DNA from: an uncultured Gemmatimonadales bacterium
GTDB taxonomy: Bacteria > Gemmatimonadota > Gemmatimonadetes > Longimicrobiales > Gaopeijiaceae
Direction: 5' to 3'
DNA: 64,000 bases
NCBI GenBank assembly: GCA_963809895.1
Contig: CAWELD010000003.1
Coordinates: 2,400,001 to 2,464,000, forward strand
Part shown: positions 53,168 through 63,802 of the stretch, piece by piece
Layout of the letters: every line of letters starts with the position of its first letter
Position numbering within the stretch: position 1 is the first letter of the stretch
Position numbers and translations under genes: made by a program
Notes under the pieces: model-generated
Told to the model about the DNA's origin: nothing
The model's database searches: none
What the model saw: only the letters and a program-made list of their open reading frames with translations

Positions 53168-54064
53168 TCAGCCCTCGCCCCCCGTGGGACGCGGGGGCAG
53201 CGAACGCAGGAAGAGCCACACCGCCTGGAGCTCGTCGTCTTCCATGGAACGCGTGGAGCGCCACGGCATGACGTCCGACAGCTGGGTGCCGTCGGGCCGG
53301 CGTCCTTCCGTGAGTGCACGCTTGAAGTCCTCGAAGGCCCAGTTCCCCAGCCCCTCGTCGGGATTGGGCGTGAGGTTGGCCGAGCGAGGTGCGCCCGGCT
53401 GAATCTCGACGCCCCCGTTGAGCTCCTCGCCGTGGCAACCGGCGCACAACGTGGCGAGGTAGGCCCCGTATTCGCGGGTGGCGCCTCGGGCGGGCGCTTC
53501 GACCGGCGATGCGTGGTGATCGATGCGGTTCGCCTCGACGAGTCCCCCGCTCGTGATGATCATGCGCGCCACCGGACCCAGGGTGCGTGGCCCGAGGTCG
53601 TGGTCGACGGGTGGCAGCGTCTGCAGGTAGGCTACGATGCGGCCCAGGTCACCGTCCCCGAGCCTGGCGTACTCCGACGAGGGCATGATGACGAGCAGTC
53701 GGCCGTCGTGCCCGATCCCGTGTCGTAGCGCCCGGAACCAGTCCTCCGGCGCGTTGGTGGCACCGACGCCGCCCTGCCCAGGCGTCAGGTTGGGTGCCAC
53801 GATGTGTCCCATGGGCGCCGCGTCGATCAGCACCTGGCCGCTCAGGTCCGGCCCATGACATTCGGTGCACCCGAACGCCACCGTCAGACGCTTGCCTTCG
53901 GCGAGGGATTCGGGGTCCGTGGGGATCGGCGGAACCCGCACCTCCACATCGAACGACTTCGACAGTTTGCGTGCGCTCAGCGCGTACACGCCCCCCACCG
54001 CCACCACCAACACGAGCACCAGCACACCCACGCCCACGACCAACCACTTCAGGACTCGCTTCAT
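53168..54064 (-). CDS. Membrane-anchored diheme cytochrome c
   Basis: N-terminal TM helix, CTECH and CAGCH, APNLT/ANLT, two MP axial motifs. Confidence 0.88.
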   Translation of the reverse strand: MKRVLKWLVVGVGVLVLVLVVAVGGVYALSARKLSKSFDVEVRVPPIPTDPESLAEGKRLTVAFGCTECHGPDLSGQVLIDAAPMGHIVAPNLTPGQGGVGATNAPEDWFRALRHGIGHDGRLLVIMPSSEYARLGDGDLGRIVAYLQTLPPVDHDLGPRTLGPVARMIITSGGLVEANRIDHHASPVEAPARGATREYGAYLATLCAGCHGEELNGGVEIQPGAPRSANLTPNPDEGLGNWAFEDFKRALTEGRRPDGTQLSDVMPWRSTRSMEDDELQAVWLFLRSLPPRPTGGEG

Positions 54065-54068
54065 ACGC

Positions 54069-54416
54069 TCAACCTCCGGGATTGTCGACGTCCTCCTCCC
54101 ACAAGCCCATGAGATAGGTGTCGTAGAGATCGGGATGAGCCCGGTAGTCCTCGACCCACACCTCGAAGGGCGGAAGCACGACTCGCGCCGAGAGCCACTC
54201 CGTGGCCACCTGCATCATGCCCATGTATGAAACGTCGCCCACACCACCCCCTTCACGGGCGGCCTTCTGGGCAACGAGGTAGATTTCGTCCGGCGTGAGA
54301 TACAACAGCAGATCGGCGAGTTGGGCCGAACAGTAGTCCAGGTACTTCGCCCGGAGGATTCCCTCCGTCTCCTCACGACTCGGGTCGCGGGGCTTGGGCG
54401 GATCGGCGCCGTTCAC
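54069..54416 (-). CDS. Hypothetical protein, 'domain A' only (LRxxYxxY...LPPFEVWxxDY)
   Basis: GTG start; shares motifs with 55230-55838 and 57230-57940. Confidence 0.7.
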   Translation of the reverse strand: MNGADPPKPRDPSREETEGILRAKYLDYCSAQLADLLLYLTPDEIYLVAQKAAREGGGVGDVSYMGMMQVATEWLSARVVLPPFEVWVEDYRAHPDLYDTYLMGLWEEDVDNPGG

Positions 54417-54601
54417 GCGGTGCCCCCGGAAGCTCGATGGGTCAGTCCCGCCACAGGAGCCGACTGCGCGCATCCGCAATGCCGCACCCGGCCGAGAACC
54501 AACCTATGGATGTCGCGGGTCGCGCACCTGCGCAAGGGCGGACACGATCCCCGGGGGTTGCCCGGAGCCCTTCGCGGGTAGCGACTTGCGACGTTCGGGC
54601 T

Positions 54602-54805
54602 TCAGGTGGCCAGCGGCGACGCCGTGGCTTCGGAGCCGGTATCGTCACGCCGCTCGCGCAGGTGACGATAGATGGATCGGCGCGTGAGTCCGTACAGCAC
54701 CACCCGGCTCAGGAACTCCGGGTCGCTCTTCTGAACCTCTTCGGCCTCGGCCGCGATGTCTCGGGGCAGACGAACGTTCAGTTGCACGGAACAGGTCTCC
54801 CACAT
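54602..54805 (-). CDS. Small protein with a ribbon-helix-helix-like N-terminus
   Basis: MWETCSVQLNVRLPRDIA... (beta strand, LP, helix); GGAG RBS. Confidence 0.65.
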   Translation of the reverse strand: MWETCSVQLNVRLPRDIAAEAEEVQKSDPEFLSRVVLYGLTRRSIYRHLRERRDDTGSEATASPLAT

Positions 54806-55229
54806 GCGCCGACTCCGAAAGGAATTGTTGAAAAGTTGATAACTGGCAGATGTCCCGCGCCGCCGCCGGATCCCGGCCCGGGCGGCACTCGCACAGCCCA
54901 CTCTGCTGGCTGCGGGAACGAAGAATAGGGCGCTTCTTTCCGGGGCGCAAGGCTCGTCCAGGCAACAAGGCTGAGCCGAATAGAATACGTAAGTCCCTGT
55001 CCAGCAAACACTTACGATTATGGCCGTTTCGCCGAATTCAAGCGTTCCCTCGGCTGCGCGAGAGCGCGATTTTTTGAACTTTTTTTGGAGGATGTGCTTT
55101 GATTCCGGGATGTTCCGAGATCAAGGCATCGAGAAATGACCCCGGATCCGTCGCGCGAATTTTGCAAATAATTGGAGCGCGCCGCGTAACCGCGGTCGAG
55201 CGCCGATCGGCGCCGGGCGAGGCGCGGAC

Positions 55230-55838
55230 CTACGGCAGCGCCGAGCGGAGGAAGGCGCGCAGCGTGGCTTCATCGAAGCTGCGGAAACGCTCGCGGACCG
55301 GGGTCAGATGCTCTTCCCGGAAGATGTCGGCGGTGCGCACGGAGTCGCGCTCGGGCGGGCGATGGAACTGGATGGCGCCGCGCCATCCCTCCTCCACCGG
55401 ATGGACGCACAGGGCGGCGACCCATTCCGCCGACGCCACGACGAAGGTCCGCACGTCCACGGTGACGGGCTCACCACCCGGTACCGCGGGCCCTTCGGCC
55501 AGCGGCGGCTCCACATCCACCAGATAGGCGCCCCGATTGAGGTGGAAGTCCTCGAGCCACGCTCCGAAGGGGGGCAGCGGCAGAAGCTCGGCGCAGTGGG
55601 CGGCGAGCTGTTCAAGCGTCGGCTCTCCCCGCACGGCCTCCCCCTGTCCGGCCCGGAACTGGCGCACCAGGGCGCGCACGCCCTCCCTGGGCACAATGGC
55701 GAGCAGGTCCCGTCCCTGGCGTTGGCGATACGCCTCGTAGCGCGCGCGCAGGGCTTCTGTGGCCGGGTGACTCTCCGCGGGTCCCTGTCGGGGGATGTGG
55801 GCGTACCGGGCTCCACCGGCGCCGAGCTCGGTGGCCAT
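55230..55838 (-). CDS. Hypothetical protein, domain order A-B
   Basis: LRARYEAY...LPLPPFGAWLEDF followed by W..WRG..F..RTADIFREE..LRAFLRSAL; TGATG coupling to the upstream gene. Confidence 0.72.
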   Translation of the reverse strand: MATELGAGGARYAHIPRQGPAESHPATEALRARYEAYRQRQGRDLLAIVPREGVRALVRQFRAGQGEAVRGEPTLEQLAAHCAELLPLPPFGAWLEDFHLNRGAYLVDVEPPLAEGPAVPGGEPVTVDVRTFVVASAEWVAALCVHPVEEGWRGAIQFHRPPERDSVRTADIFREEHLTPVRERFRSFDEATLRAFLRSALP

Positions 55839-56725
55839 CAGTGCACCGTCCCCATCTCGGACACCACGGGAGCCACGCGCACGGTCCTGGCGGCCGGAAG
55901 TCGGTCCCTGAGGCGGGCCAGCGTCTCTCGCTTGCCGAAGGTTGCGACCACACCGTCCACGGCCTGGAAGCGTTCCGGCTCGAAGCGCGCCAGCAGGCCC
56001 GCCAGCCCCGCGCGCACCCGTCCCAACTCCTCACGCAGCTCCTCCATGGTGAGGGGCAGCGGGAACCGGACCTGGTACCCGCCGGCGGCCGCCGGCGACG
56101 CCGGCACCAGCCGACGAAGGTCGGTGCCCGGGAACACCTCGCTCAGGGCATCCTCCAGCGTGTGATCCGGCGCGGCCGTGGGTGTGCGGAGGAGGAGGGC
56201 GTTGTCGTCGTAGTCCAGGTGGGCCCTCACCAGGCGCCCGGGGGCGACCGAGATACGGACTGCCGTGCCGTCGTTCAGGTCGAGATCGCGACACACGTCC
56301 CGGAATCCCAGGCGGAGCAGCGAGGGGCGGGTGAGCGGACCGAAGCCCACGCGCTCCAGGACCGAGAGTGCCAGACGAAAGCAGAAGCGCGACAGGTCGC
56401 CCCGATCCCGGCCGCTGGCGGCGGCGCGCACCAGCTCGGCCACGTGCTCGAGCGTCGGCTCGTACACCCAGTCGAGCACCACGAGCTCGCCACTCAGGTC
56501 CAGGAGCTTCACGTCGGCGCTGCCGAGGTCCACCACTTCGGCCGACGAGGCGTAACGGCCCTCGAGGACCAATGCCACACCGATGTCCTGGATGCGGCCC
56601 CCGGGCACGTCCACTTCGTGCACGTCGCGGTACTGGACCACGGCGCGGGTCAGCGGCAACTCGCAGACGCCGGGCACGTCGGCCATGGCTTCCGGTCGAC
56701 TGTCGAGGTTGAGGCTCGTGTGCAT
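55838..56725 (-). CDS. Hypothetical 295-aa cytoplasmic protein
   Basis: Long ORF with typical codon bias, translationally coupled to the next gene; no recognisable motif. Confidence 0.7.
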   Translation of the reverse strand: MHTSLNLDSRPEAMADVPGVCELPLTRAVVQYRDVHEVDVPGGRIQDIGVALVLEGRYASSAEVVDLGSADVKLLDLSGELVVLDWVYEPTLEHVAELVRAAASGRDRGDLSRFCFRLALSVLERVGFGPLTRPSLLRLGFRDVCRDLDLNDGTAVRISVAPGRLVRAHLDYDDNALLLRTPTAAPDHTLEDALSEVFPGTDLRRLVPASPAAAGGYQVRFPLPLTMEELREELGRVRAGLAGLLARFEPERFQAVDGVVATFGKRETLARLRDRLPAARTVRVAPVVSEMGTVH

Positions 56726-56803
56726 GTCGTATTCCCCGTGGATTCGCGCGTGCGCGTCACGGGGAGAGCATGCGTCAGGATCGTCGGAGGGTACACGCCG
56801 ACC

Positions 56804-56833
56804 TTGACACCCGCTCGACGAGCCTTGTATCCT
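56804..56833 (+). promoter_or_regulatory. Sigma70-type promoter
   Basis: TTGACA-18 nt-TATCCT. Confidence 0.6.
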
Positions 56834-56837
56834 CTTC

Positions 56838-56919
56838 GATAGTCAATCGAATGGAAACGGGCTCGCCAGCCCGTGCCGCGCGGGAGTTCCGGTGCCAGCC
56901 GGAGCTCCCGCGTTTTTTT
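56838..56919 (+). ncRNA. Candidate ~80-nt small RNA or attenuated leader
   Basis: Bounded by the promoter above and a strong terminator CGCGGGAGTTCCGG-tgccag-CCGGAGCTCCCGCG-TTTTTTT; internal ACGGGCT-cgcc-AGCCCGT hairpin. Confidence 0.5.
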
Positions 56920-57229
56920 CAGGGGTGGCGACGCCGAGGCACCACCACGCTTTTCTTGTAATTTTCTCCCGCCCCACGAAGGGGCGACGCAGGCCCGGCA
57001 GACGCGGTGCCACCCGCATCGTCCGGGCCTGATGCGACGGGTCGTCTACCCCGTCTGCGCTACGATAACCAACTGTTTACGACCCCCGCAAGAAGATTCG
57101 CTGCAGCGGGCCCGGAACCGCGCATTCCCACGTCCGCGGCGATGCCAATCGCCAGGGTCGGGATCTCCCGGCGGGGACCCGCCAGCCTCCAGGTTGCCAC
57201 CGCCGCAGAAGCCGATCACCTTGCCGGAT

Positions 57230-57940
57230 ATGGTCACGCCCACCCCCGATCGCTCCGCGCCACCGGTGCCGGAGCACCGCATCCGCCGCCGCTCCGTCGG
57301 CTTCCTGGATCGCGAGGGCCAACGATGGGCCTGCTTCCTGGTGAGCTATCCCGATGGCGACGGCGCCTGGCGGGGGCATTTCGCGTTCCGCCCGTCCGGC
57401 GGGCACGGCGACGGCCATCAGGTGCGTACCACCGACATCTTCGTCGAGCCGTCCGAGGCGGAGATCCAGGTGAAGGCGCGCGGACTGGGGCGCCCCCTGC
57501 TTCGTGCCCTGCTGGACTCGGCCCTGCACGTGCGTTCGCGGGCCGACGACGACTCCCCGTTCCTCCGCCGCTGGTTCCGGGAGCTTCTGGCGGAACACTC
57601 TCGCATGCCCGACGGACCGGCCGAAGGCGGCGTGGGCGAAGCGTCCGATCTCGACGAGTTGAGATCGCTGTACGCGTCGTATCGGCTCGACCAGGTCGCG
57701 CACTTCATCGCCCTGGTGCGTCCCGAGGAGTTCGAAGGCGCGGTCGCGCACGTGCTCGAAGGCGAGCGTATCGACTTCGCCGCCCGCGATCGGCTCCAGC
57801 TCGCCATGCTGGTGGTGGAGTTCATCGAGGAGCGGCTCCCGCTCCCGCCCTTCGAGGTCTGGGTGCGCGACTATCTCGAGCACGCGGAGCGCTACCACAT
57901 CTACGCGCACACGCTGCACCGCGAAGGGCGGCTGCCCTGA
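57230..57940 (+). CDS. Hypothetical protein, domain order B-A
   Basis: W..WRG.F.F..RTTDIFVE..LRALLDSAL followed by LRSLYASY...LPLPPFEVWVRDY. Confidence 0.72.
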   Translation: MVTPTPDRSAPPVPEHRIRRRSVGFLDREGQRWACFLVSYPDGDGAWRGHFAFRPSGGHGDGHQVRTTDIFVEPSEAEIQVKARGLGRPLLRALLDSALHVRSRADDDSPFLRRWFRELLAEHSRMPDGPAEGGVGEASDLDELRSLYASYRLDQVAHFIALVRPEEFEGAVAHVLEGERIDFAARDRLQLAMLVVEFIEERLPLPPFEVWVRDYLEHAERYHIYAHTLHREGRLP

Positions 57941-60865: not shown

Positions 60866-61657
60866 TCAGGCGGAGCGCCGCCGGAGGAACAGGCTGTCGA
60901 GGGAATCCCAGGCCTCCAGGGCCTCGGGCGCGCACAGCTCCGATACGAAGCGGATCAGGAGCCGTTCCCATCCCCCGGGCATGCGGAGCTCGGTGGGGGT
61001 GGAGCCGATCGTGGAGCTCAGATACCGACACAGGTTCGCGCTGGTCACCCACCCCAGCCGCTGGGCGGCGCGCAAGGTGGTGAAGCCACGCCCGCGGAGC
61101 ACGTGAGCCACGCTCAGGGCCCGGAACCAGCGCAGGTAGGAAAAGGGGGATTCCAGGGAACGGCGACGGAAGCGGGCCTTCAGGGCTCCCGCCGACAGTC
61201 CCGTGAGGCGTTCCAGTGCGCCCAGATCACCGTATCGATGGGGTAGCGCCATGGCACGGCGCCCCAGCCCGCGCAGCGCCGACGGCAGGGGGCGCCCGGC
61301 GATGCGATCCAGATCCCGCAGCGCCGTGTCGAGCCAGAGGCGCCCACCCTGCTGCCGAAGCCCGGGCTGGAGCCGGGTCGCCAGATAGGCCGGCCAGGAC
61401 CGGGGCAGGCCGTCCGTCTTCCAGCCGTCCCTCCAGATCGCGGACTCACGCTCCGAGATCGTCAGGATGGGCACCGACCGCCCGCTCCCGTCCTGTACCG
61501 CCCTGCGAACTTTCTCCGTGGTCACCGCCACCCGCGGGAACCCGAGGTGCAACGCGAGCTCGACCTCGTCGGCGTCCGCCAGAACGTCCTCTTCGGGCGA
61601 AGCCGCCAGGCGCACAGCGGCTCGCAGGCCGGGATCGGAACGAAGAATGACGATCAT
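60866..61657 (-). CDS. AraC-like helix-turn-helix transcriptional regulator
   Basis: L...GLS..AL.ARF.R..L.SP..YLRW.R, A..LG....NL.R.....G.TP.EL. Confidence 0.7.
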   Translation of the reverse strand: MIVILRSDPGLRAAVRLAASPEEDVLADADEVELALHLGFPRVAVTTEKVRRAVQDGSGRSVPILTISERESAIWRDGWKTDGLPRSWPAYLATRLQPGLRQQGGRLWLDTALRDLDRIAGRPLPSALRGLGRRAMALPHRYGDLGALERLTGLSAGALKARFRRRSLESPFSYLRWFRALSVAHVLRGRGFTTLRAAQRLGWVTSANLCRYLSSTIGSTPTELRMPGGWERLLIRFVSELCAPEALEAWDSLDSLFLRRRSA

Positions 61658-62911: not shown

Positions 62912-63802
62912 TCACCGTGAGCCTCCGGCAGGCCGGGGGCCCTCATCGTCGTCGTCCAGGTTGAGAAGCAGCCGGCGCGCACCGTGGAACTGGCGCTCGG
63001 CCCAGCGGCGCCAGGAGGCAGGGGGAGGCTCCAGAACCTCGCCGGTCTCCAGCCGGTCCAGCACGCCCTCGACCTCGGCGTGCACGTCCAGGAACTTGCG
63101 GCGGTGCCCCCGGCCTGCCAGGCGCACCGCCAGCCAGCCGACCAATCCCGCCACGACCCCTCCCGAGGCGACACCCAGCGCCACGGGAGCGACCATGGAT
63201 ACGAGGAACCCCACCCCCACCCCACCGGCCGCTGCCGCCAGCCCTCCGCCGAAGGCCATGCCCCCCACGTAGTCGCCCCGGATGCCCGGGTCCACGACGA
63301 ACTCCACCATGGTGCGGCCCGGATCCACCGGCTCCAGCGTCACCTCCACCGAGCGGGCGGAGGCCACGAAGTACTTCTTGGAGGTCGCGCTGGCCGCCCG
63401 TGCCAGCTGCGAGATCCAGTCCACCGCCGGCCGGTACTGCAGGAAGGTGGGAGATCGGCGCACCCGCTGCAGGAGTCGCCCCGCCACCATGAAGTCGTCC
63501 AGCTGAGCGGACAGCTCGTCGGTGGTCCCGTCGACGACGCGGGAGGCGTGCACCAGCTCGGGCCCCAGGAGCCGATCGAGAATCTTGCCGTCGGGGGCCG
63601 CGCCGGCGCGCACCTCGGCCAGGGCCTGTCTCACGTAGCGCTCGGGGAGGCCGACCTCACGGGCGATCCGGTAGACCTCCCCCTCACCGAGATCCCCCTC
63701 TCCCTGCTCCGCCTCGCGCGCGGCCAGCTCGGAGGCACGACGGATCACCTCGTCGAACTGTGTGCGGGTCAGGCTACTCCCCGGTTGCCGTTCGTTGGTC
63801 AC
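62912..63802 (-). CDS. Hypothetical membrane protein
   Basis: FDEVIRRASEL..IAREVGL N-terminal helical motif, two Gly-rich TM helices; GTG start. Confidence 0.7.
   Translation of the reverse strand: MTNERQPGSSLTRTQFDEVIRRASELAAREAEQGEGDLGEGEVYRIAREVGLPERYVRQALAEVRAGAAPDGKILDRLLGPELVHASRVVDGTTDELSAQLDDFMVAGRLLQRVRRSPTFLQYRPAVDWISQLARAASATSKKYFVASARSVEVTLEPVDPGRTMVEFVVDPGIRGDYVGGMAFGGGLAAAAGGVGVGFLVSMVAPVALGVASGGVVAGLVGWLAVRLAGRGHRRKFLDVHAEVEGVLDRLETGEVLEPPPASWRRWAERQFHGARRLLLNLDDDDEGPRPAGGSR

Follow-up and report, generated by a model that had tools for sequence, protein, structure and literature searches.

A putative, vertically inherited regulatory island with two unnamed protein domains and a small RNA in Longimicrobiales-type Gemmatimonadota

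A stretch of 64,000 nucleotides (the window) from an uncultured Gemmatimonadales bacterium (GenBank assembly GCA_963809895.1, contig CAWELD010000003.1, positions 2,400,001 to 2,464,000) contains, at window positions 54,069 to 57,940, genes for five proteins, here called A-only, R67, A-B, U295, and B-A, together with a small RNA (sRNA). This locus is tentatively read, with a probability of roughly 0.4, as a regulatory island, vertically inherited in Longimicrobiales-type Gemmatimonadota, that would combine a small DNA-binding regulator, acidic helical partner proteins, and an sRNA. The analysis showed that the genes keep their order and are inherited together, that three promoter elements are conserved, and that the RNA forms a family with a characteristic structure; we infer that R67 binds DNA, that the proteins contact one another, and that the RNA has a target. 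After testing, no known family or system fitted, and only in this sense is the system provisionally considered new. Named relatives point to Gemmatimonadota, most often to Longimicrobiales. A full-text literature search, from which subscription journals were largely absent, returned nothing on the genes, the palindrome described below, or the RNA, although ortholog tables in supplements may list the genes as hypothetical. PMC11596202 presents Longimicrobiales and Palauibacterales as closely related, and in the passages considered "ribbon-helix-helix" appears in a reference title only. Coordinates are numbered by the window unless a contig or locus is named; in the source genome, contig C3 carries the locus near 2.455 Mb.

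Gene order and inheritance

All five open reading frames (ORFs), with the motifs quoted in an initial annotation made from the sequence alone, were found where that annotation had placed them. The locus was compared with 22 relative loci, of which 20 were fetched around search matches (and were thereby selected for having one) and two were others. Identical order and orientation of the five genes was found in 13 of these loci, and ssb was within the fetched stretch in 20. Neighbors of the locus include ssb, recF, dciA, and gyrB. GC content was flat across the locus, with no GC anomaly or mobility signal, in agreement with the earlier proposal of a conserved, nonmobile position beside ssb. The description of a core locus was upheld with respect to vertical inheritance but not with respect to closeness to the origin: dnaA and the GC-skew minimum are near 3.54 to 3.55 Mb of contig C3, and an origin of replication at the locus was rejected because of this distance of ~1.1 Mb. 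Four transcription units were distinguished (R67-A, U295-[A-B], the sRNA, and B-A). The TGATG overlap of U295 and A-B was seen in the sequence as annotated, and an overlap or a gap of ≤5 nucleotides (nt) was present in 11 of 16 loci (the truncated locus L009 was excluded).

Across the phylum, an even sample of 201 genomes was surveyed, 17 of which are outside the class. R67 was present in 39 genomes and the A-only orthologue in the identical 39, with the two genes ≤1 kb apart in 36 of them. U295 was present in 15 genomes, in every case no more than 3.5 kb from one of these two genes. Because of this co-occurrence (39/39, 36 adjacent, versus U295 in 15), R67 and A-only constitute the conserved core, and A-B, B-A, and U295 are patchier additions of the bacterium's own order. 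The A-only protein, previously suggested to be a possible competitor, is more naturally a core partner, being encoded by the invariant partner gene of R67. The R67-A pair was away from ssb in loci of families f6, f7, and f2 (labels f1 to f12 are arbitrary tags without taxon names).

Shared domains A and B

Domains A and B, reported earlier as shared and permuted among three of the proteins, were recovered as such. In BLASTP comparisons, A-only matched B-A (E = 2e-11) and A-B (E = 4e-6), and A-B matched B-A in two separate segments in swapped order (A, E = 1e-6; B, E = 4e-6). In profile-profile comparisons (hhalign), probabilities were 97.8 to 98.5 for domain A across the three genes (E = 1e-12 to 2e-15) and 98.3 for domain B (E = 2e-14), the latter exceeding 40 of 40 block-shuffled controls. 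That neither domain belongs to a recognized family also held in the Pfam, NCBIfam, and PHROG databases, in which no family reached its cut-off or E = 0.05 for any of the five proteins. The best match in a search of PDB sequences with five profiles was at E = 0.085, and none was worth naming; in the ESM Atlas, B-A matched unnamed Gemmatimonadota clusters only, and domain B had no usable named match.

The domains were not specific to this module. A broadened A profile matched 176 of the 201 genomes (including one unpublished genome, G191), mostly with one copy each and never in the 17 genomes from other classes; the B profile matched 133, and most matches of both domains were in other architectures. 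Outside the cluster, domain B was a stand-alone protein of ~95 amino acids (aa) in the loci examined, and domain A formed the N-terminal part of a protein of ~270 aa whose C terminus is methyltransferase-like in 10 of 10 loci examined (f4, f5, and f8), an assignment that an independent profile test reproduced (probability, 95.8; above 30/30 shuffles). One of eight such proteins reached a Pfam methyltransferase cut-off, and, in a search for longer A-domain fusions, the 120 listed matches were all 220 to 278 aa in length and without a Pfam family. These class I S-adenosylmethionine-dependent methyltransferase-like proteins of other Gemmatimonadetes orders resemble the present proteins in their N-terminal ~95 residues, which are domain A, but differ in their neighborhood (rho, ruvX, and mltG) and in the lack of R67; they are likewise uncharacterized. 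Genes for A-methyltransferase and B-only proteins were 5.6 to 15.3 kb apart in 30 genomes, which were chosen among the matches listed because A and B matches share a contig and do not give a rate. In family f7, two of the three loci examined had the genes for R67, A, and B-only in direct succession, and in the third they were separated by 2.2 kb, so that A and B combine in three ways (A-B, B-A, and consecutive R67-A-B genes).

Quick trees (82 to 93 columns) placed A-only, A of A-B, A of B-A, and A-methyltransferase in separate old groups, and B likewise, which indicates that the paralogues are old, separate clades without recent duplication. Three rows of these trees were mislabeled by the gene caller, and the trees gave no branching order that would separate permutation from independent fusion.

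Both A-only and the A domain of B-A were acidic (mean net charge, −8 and −7), which would suit protein contact more than nucleic acid binding. The model of B-A (predicted local distance difference test [pLDDT], 78; predicted template modeling score, 0.53) had four strands and two helices in B and helices only in A, without confidence in their relative orientation. Its fold search returned no Foldseek match at E ≤ 0.001 in PDB or BFVD and a best Z of 5.5, to unrelated folds, in lists that were filled by B and barely covered A. The four-stranded sheet and helix of the nucleic acid-binding PUR, PC4, and WGR folds were compared with domain B, at Z = 4.4 (PURA: root mean square deviation [rmsd], 2.4; 49 residues aligned; WGR, also 4.4). 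Domain A ends in L-P-x3-F-x2-W, a motif also present in DnaA domain I (PDB 4tps_B, E = 0.28). Domain A as a DnaA domain I was rejected: the PF11638/DnaA_N profile match was at shuffle level (reached by 9 of 40), and A is all-helical in the model, versus a KH-like alpha/beta fold.

Several further relatives and neighbors of the two domains were noted. A fourth, stand-alone B gene is present in the source genome between mscS and an ABC-2 permease gene (G000:C3:3194749-3195060, plus strand; L077:4750-5061), and its orthologues form their own clade. Three ~78-aa proteins (G000:C3:451587-451820, plus strand; L081:4446-4682; L081:4778-5014) are possible remote relatives of B (probability, 10; above 30/30 shuffles), and B may belong to a larger superfamily. 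In other orders, B-only genes were followed directly by a stand-alone gene for a 63- to 66-aa HisKA phospho-acceptor protein (L063:10490-10681, L064:9720-9911, and L067:3085-3285), and a conserved gene for an unknown protein of 55 to 58 aa was directly 3' of the A-methyltransferase gene (L063:1971-2138, L068:2146-2313, and L078:4870-5046). In one record (P0261), possibly a misassembly, an A-only protein was fused to an EAL domain.

R67 and its upstream region

The N terminus of R67 (SVQLNVRLP) is an alternating polar/hydrophobic strand and is followed by a helix. Its description as ribbon-helix-helix (RHH)-like was partly supported, for the strand and first helix and not for the second helix, the turn, or the Pfam cut-off. 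When R67 was aligned by hhalign to an RHH profile made from 12 such genes in the same genomes, the score was 18.6, above 40 of 40 shuffles, over the strand and first helix only. R67 was below the Pfam RHH_1 and Arc cut-offs and absent from the eight RHH_1 matches of its own genome; one of 21 R67 family members matched Pfam Arc (E = 0.13). R67 shares with RHH regulators (Arc/CopG/MetJ; Pfam RHH_1 and Arc) a ~50-residue core with an alternating strand, L-P, and a helix, but the profile match is weak and spans 20 columns, and the fixed partner of R67 is an unnamed helical protein. The modeled complex of A-only and two R67 chains reached a score of 0.31 against a mark of 0.32, with controls not folded.

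Upstream of R67, positions 54806 to 55229 had been annotated as structured; positions 54806 to 54930 folded at shuffle level (z = −0.19), and the region is instead a conserved promoter region, with a counterpart of 364 to 472 nt in 15 loci. Among the 27 loci in which the gene caller recovered R67, TTG(C/A)(G/C)-17/18-TAnnnT was found 130 to 164 nt upstream of R67 in 25, compared to 50 of 4,704 upstream regions of the source genome. A TAAGTnnTTG-type half-site was present in 20 of these loci (8/4,704 in the background), and the full palindrome was present in 15 (14/4,704); 18 of the 20 half-sites start 64 to 66 nt upstream of the −35 box. This palindrome, which we take to resemble the consensus of integration host factor (IHF), also recurs in viral contigs, in at least 151 stretches and often more than once in a contig; because it is common there, it is probably a general host-factor site. 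Palindrome clusters 1 to 2 kb apart were seen in phage contigs (L149-L228), and the palindrome was also seen elsewhere in the source genome (G000:C10:798958). A conserved GGAAC-n3-TGAATT box in this region is a possible activator site. In the source genome, the 9-mer TTTTCAACA is intergenic only at this locus and between dnaA and dnaN.

Small RNA family

The sRNA candidate proposed earlier was supported, within positions 56726 to 57229, by predicted structure (z = −6.3), by its own promoter and terminator, and by an RNA family in relatives. A model built from four copies recovered further copies at the same locus in four f3 genomes, two of which had tandem copies; its other matches were weak or terminator-like, and one in the unpublished genome G286 was set aside. 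All 10 copies had TTGACA and a −10 box, and compensatory changes were found at 8 of 15 consensus pairs. A second model had matches at E ≤ 1e-4 in 37 of 121 family genomes, of which three had supplied training copies. With the three training copies and 17 weaker matches left out, 22 of 25 loci were examined (one mis-extracted and one identical to a training copy); U295 and A/B genes were within 1.5 kb in all 22, and 19 matched the promoter pattern. The motif (G/A)CC(A/G) was present in the middle and terminator loops of 29 of 29 distinct copies and in the 5' loop of about half, and stems varied freely in per-sequence folds, in which pairing is predicted. Strong matches numbered two among 141 class genomes, and of the weak matches in other orders, two were examined and neither was at this locus.

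Rfam had no family at the gathering cut-off (best, BjrC68, 24.8 bits versus 39) and, for 10 further sRNA loci, nothing at E ≤ 0.1. A short exact pattern was rejected as an sRNA detector (14/121 genomes, similar to a reversed control and hence chance). Tandem GCCA-loop RNAs ~280 to 300 nt apart were seen in three f3 genomes (L124/L146, L125, and L300/L307), each copy with its own promoter in the two genomes examined. RsmY/RsmZ, cuckoo/alpha-r14, sX13, and EcpR1 are multihairpin sRNAs with repeated loop motifs. The RNA described here resembles them as an independent sigma-70 transcript of 80 to 90 nt with a repeated loop motif and two or three hairpins, the last a terminator, and in having tandem copies in some genomes; it differs in its GCCA loop motif and in being bound to one locus. 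In one metatranscriptome, portions of A-only, A-B, and U295 had near-identical contigs, and a further contig ended at 56920, the terminator; these contigs are a weak hint of expression from one study in which DNA carry-over is possible. In the same run (X1), no contig covered R67, its promoter region, or B-A, which is uninformative. The promoter/operator-like element of U295-(A-B) was visible in 17 of 17 aligned loci, and its pattern recurred in 18 of 24 additional loci, with a single occurrence in the source genome.

Table 1. Features of the locus, in window coordinates
Feature	Positions	Strand	Description
A-only protein	54069..54416	−	115 aa, beginning with GTG; domain A acidic and all-helical; gene is the core partner of R67
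R67	54602..54805	−	67 aa; best-conserved protein over first ~52 residues; strand-helix-helix pattern
Tandem DnaA-box-like 9-mers	54826..54842	−	R67 5' leader; in a minority of relative loci
Sigma-70-type promoter of R67-A	54922..54950	−	TTGCGC, 17 nt, TATTCT
Imperfect 25-bp palindrome	54990..55014	.	TAAGTnnTTG-n5-CAAnnACTTA; IHF-like; 64 nt upstream of −35 box
GGAAC-n3-TGAATT box	55035..55048	−	Preceded by A/T tracts; from alignment of 19 loci
A-B protein	55230..55838	−	202 aa; A ~55515-55769, B ~55233-55475
U295	55838..56725	−	295 aa; N-terminal SH3/KOW-like barrel and two helices, C-terminal alpha/beta sandwich
Sigma-70-type sRNA promoter	56804..56833	+	TTGACA, 18 nt, TATCCT; sole consensus promoter of region
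~85-nt sRNA	56838..56920	+	Three hairpins: 5', middle (CGCCA loop), and terminator (TGCCA loop, T run)
U295-(A-B) promoter/operator-like element	57065..57092	−	Unusually conserved spacer
B-A protein	57230..57940	+	236 aa; B ~57278-57541 (four strands, two helices), A ~57635-57937 (helical)

Predicted structure of U295

The model of U295 (pLDDT, 86) contained an SH3/KOW-like N-terminal domain and an alpha/beta C-terminal domain. The fold search returned no match at E ≤ 0.001, and the best Z was 6.9, for the C-terminal domain, with Atg10, an aminotransferase small domain, the MotA C-terminal domain, and type III secretion system chaperones at Z values of 5 to 7. The N-terminal domain (residues ~21 to 126) superposed at Z = 5.8 to 6.8 on KOW/SH3-like RNA-binding domains (OapB, eL27, and Ski2/Spt5 KOW) and on MazF/PemK: OapB matched at Z = 6.8 (rmsd, 3.0; 83 of 89 residues aligned), Ski2 KOW at Z = 6.6 to 6.7, and MazF/PemK at Z = 6.8 (rmsd, 3.7; 82 aligned), tied with the KOW domains. 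These likenesses are without sequence similarity, the scores tie over unrelated functions, and U295 has the extra alpha/beta domain. A MazF assignment of U295 was not backed by sequence (PF02452 profile probability, 0.2; equaled by 15 of 40 shuffles).

Proposed mechanism and alternative explanations

In the favored reading of a regulatory island, R67 would be a small dimeric DNA-binding regulator of the ribbon-helix-helix type, and A-only, acidic, helical, and made from the same transcript, would modulate R67 by protein contact. A-B and B-A may be accessory adaptors that join domain A to domain B, probably a small module of beta sheet and helix, which in other members of the class is stand-alone and often beside signaling genes. 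The GCCA loops of the sRNA would titrate an RNA-binding protein, for which U295 with its KOW/SH3-like domain is a local candidate, or alternatively could pair with UGGC sites, and a host nucleoid protein at the upstream palindrome might set R67-A expression. That none of the five proteins matched a catalytic family is consistent with this reading, as are the shared distribution of R67 and A-only, the placement of every U295 gene found near them, the three arrangements of A and B, the RHH profile score of R67, the conserved promoter and palindrome, the sRNA family, and the OapB match of the U295 N terminus. A more elaborate version, a new kind of self-contained regulatory circuit, is quite improbable. 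In it, an atypical RHH regulator would be controlled by A/B adaptors with further ties to histidine-kinase modules in other members of the class, and the KOW-like U295 would recognize GCCA hairpin loops and be titrated by the RNA with its three hairpins, a new post-transcriptional pair and an unrelated counterpart of Csr/Rsm.

A number of observations weigh against a regulatory island. The probability of the R67-RHH match was only 18.5, with the second helix unaligned. RHH proteins usually carry a G-x-S/T turn, and R67 has D-P-E-F at this position, with D-P and L-S-R invariant. R67 and A-only were apart in 3 of the 39 genomes. Every fold match was below Z = 8, the level of the tool for a common arrangement; MazF, Ski2 KOW, and eL27 tied with OapB for U295, the N-terminal domain of which was acidic (mean charge, −8.6) and thus unfavorable to RNA binding. 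The sRNA was missing from 13 of 17 aligned U295/B-A intergenic regions (present in 4) and had no strong match in 19 other genomes of the genus, although 12 genus genomes with fetched loci carry U295; in one genome, two sRNA copies lie beside R67-A, with U295 absent from the 3-kb stretch retrieved. Given all 29 copies, RNAalifold retained the middle hairpin only, because stem lengths vary, and UGGC was not enriched at the five gene starts (2 to 8 of 17 to 24; background, 1,135/4,713).

It is rather unlikely that the genes form no single system and are old paralogues of two small Gemmatimonadetes domains, brought together next to ssb through local duplications and fusions and acting separately, with R67-A as the only functional unit. 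The absence of A-B, B-A, U295, or the sRNA from some R67-A lineages, the four separate transcription units, the age of each paralogue clade, and the occurrence of A and B far outside the locus are in line with such a history, but U295 (15/15) and the sRNA (22/22 examined) were found only at this locus, U295 and A-B were translationally coupled in 11 of 16 loci, and A and B were joined in three different arrangements. An explanation as two-component or second-messenger adaptors, with B binding histidine-kinase or receiver domains and A coupling to R67 or an enzyme domain, is unlikely: the locus is without a kinase or receiver gene, the B-only gene of the source genome is between mscS and an ABC permease gene, and the EAL fusion of P0261, which would speak for such a role, is a single record and possibly an assembly artifact, although a 60- to 66-aa HisKA gene followed B-only in 6 of 8 f4/f8 loci (other orders), an OmpR-type regulator gene followed B in two of three f7 loci, and a second B-only clade was two to three genes from HD-GYP response regulators.

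The neighbors ssb, recF, dciA, and gyrB, the 9-mer shared with the dnaA-dnaN region, and the DnaA-like end motif of domain A would fit a DnaA-controlled replication or cell cycle checkpoint module acting on the replisome. This is improbable, given that domain A matched the DnaA_N profile no better than shuffles, that box-like 9-mers were lacking in the leader of most loci, that the origin is 1.1 Mb away, and that R67-A was away from ssb in three families. A domesticated toxin-antitoxin system, in which R67 is an RHH antitoxin, U295 or A the toxin, and the sRNA an antitoxin, is highly improbable. A small RHH-like gene is upstream of a ~115-aa gene, and MazF/PemK toxins were among the top folds for the U295 N terminus, but the MazF profile comparison was at shuffle level, U295 and R67 are in different transcripts, no family was matched in the sequence scans, and the module is single-copy, fixed, and vertical, unlike the genuine RHH and PemK genes of this genome, which are scattered.

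Neighboring genes

A di-heme cytochrome c gene (53168-54064, minus strand) starts 5 nt past the A-only stop and had no counterpart there in 22 of 22 relative loci; it is therefore a local insertion. Two genes on the minus strand (60866-61657 and 62912-63802), encoding an AraC-like helix-turn-helix protein just below cut-off and a 296-aa unknown, are conserved neighbors of weak or no family that are syntenic in many relatives. Outside the window, 17 tRNA genes are arrayed on one strand in 2.1 kb (G000:C10:356346-358464).

Implications for Gemmatimonadota

Soils and sediments harbor Gemmatimonadota in abundance, and the molecular biology of these bacteria has hardly been studied. Tests are feasible because the named record P0136, which carries U295, is from a cultured species, Gaopeijia maritima. 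The locus defines two class-wide unnamed domains, of which A is single-copy in most of 176 genomes, and adds a tightly co-inherited pair of a putative regulator and its partner together with an unlisted sRNA family, precise promoters, and candidate operators.

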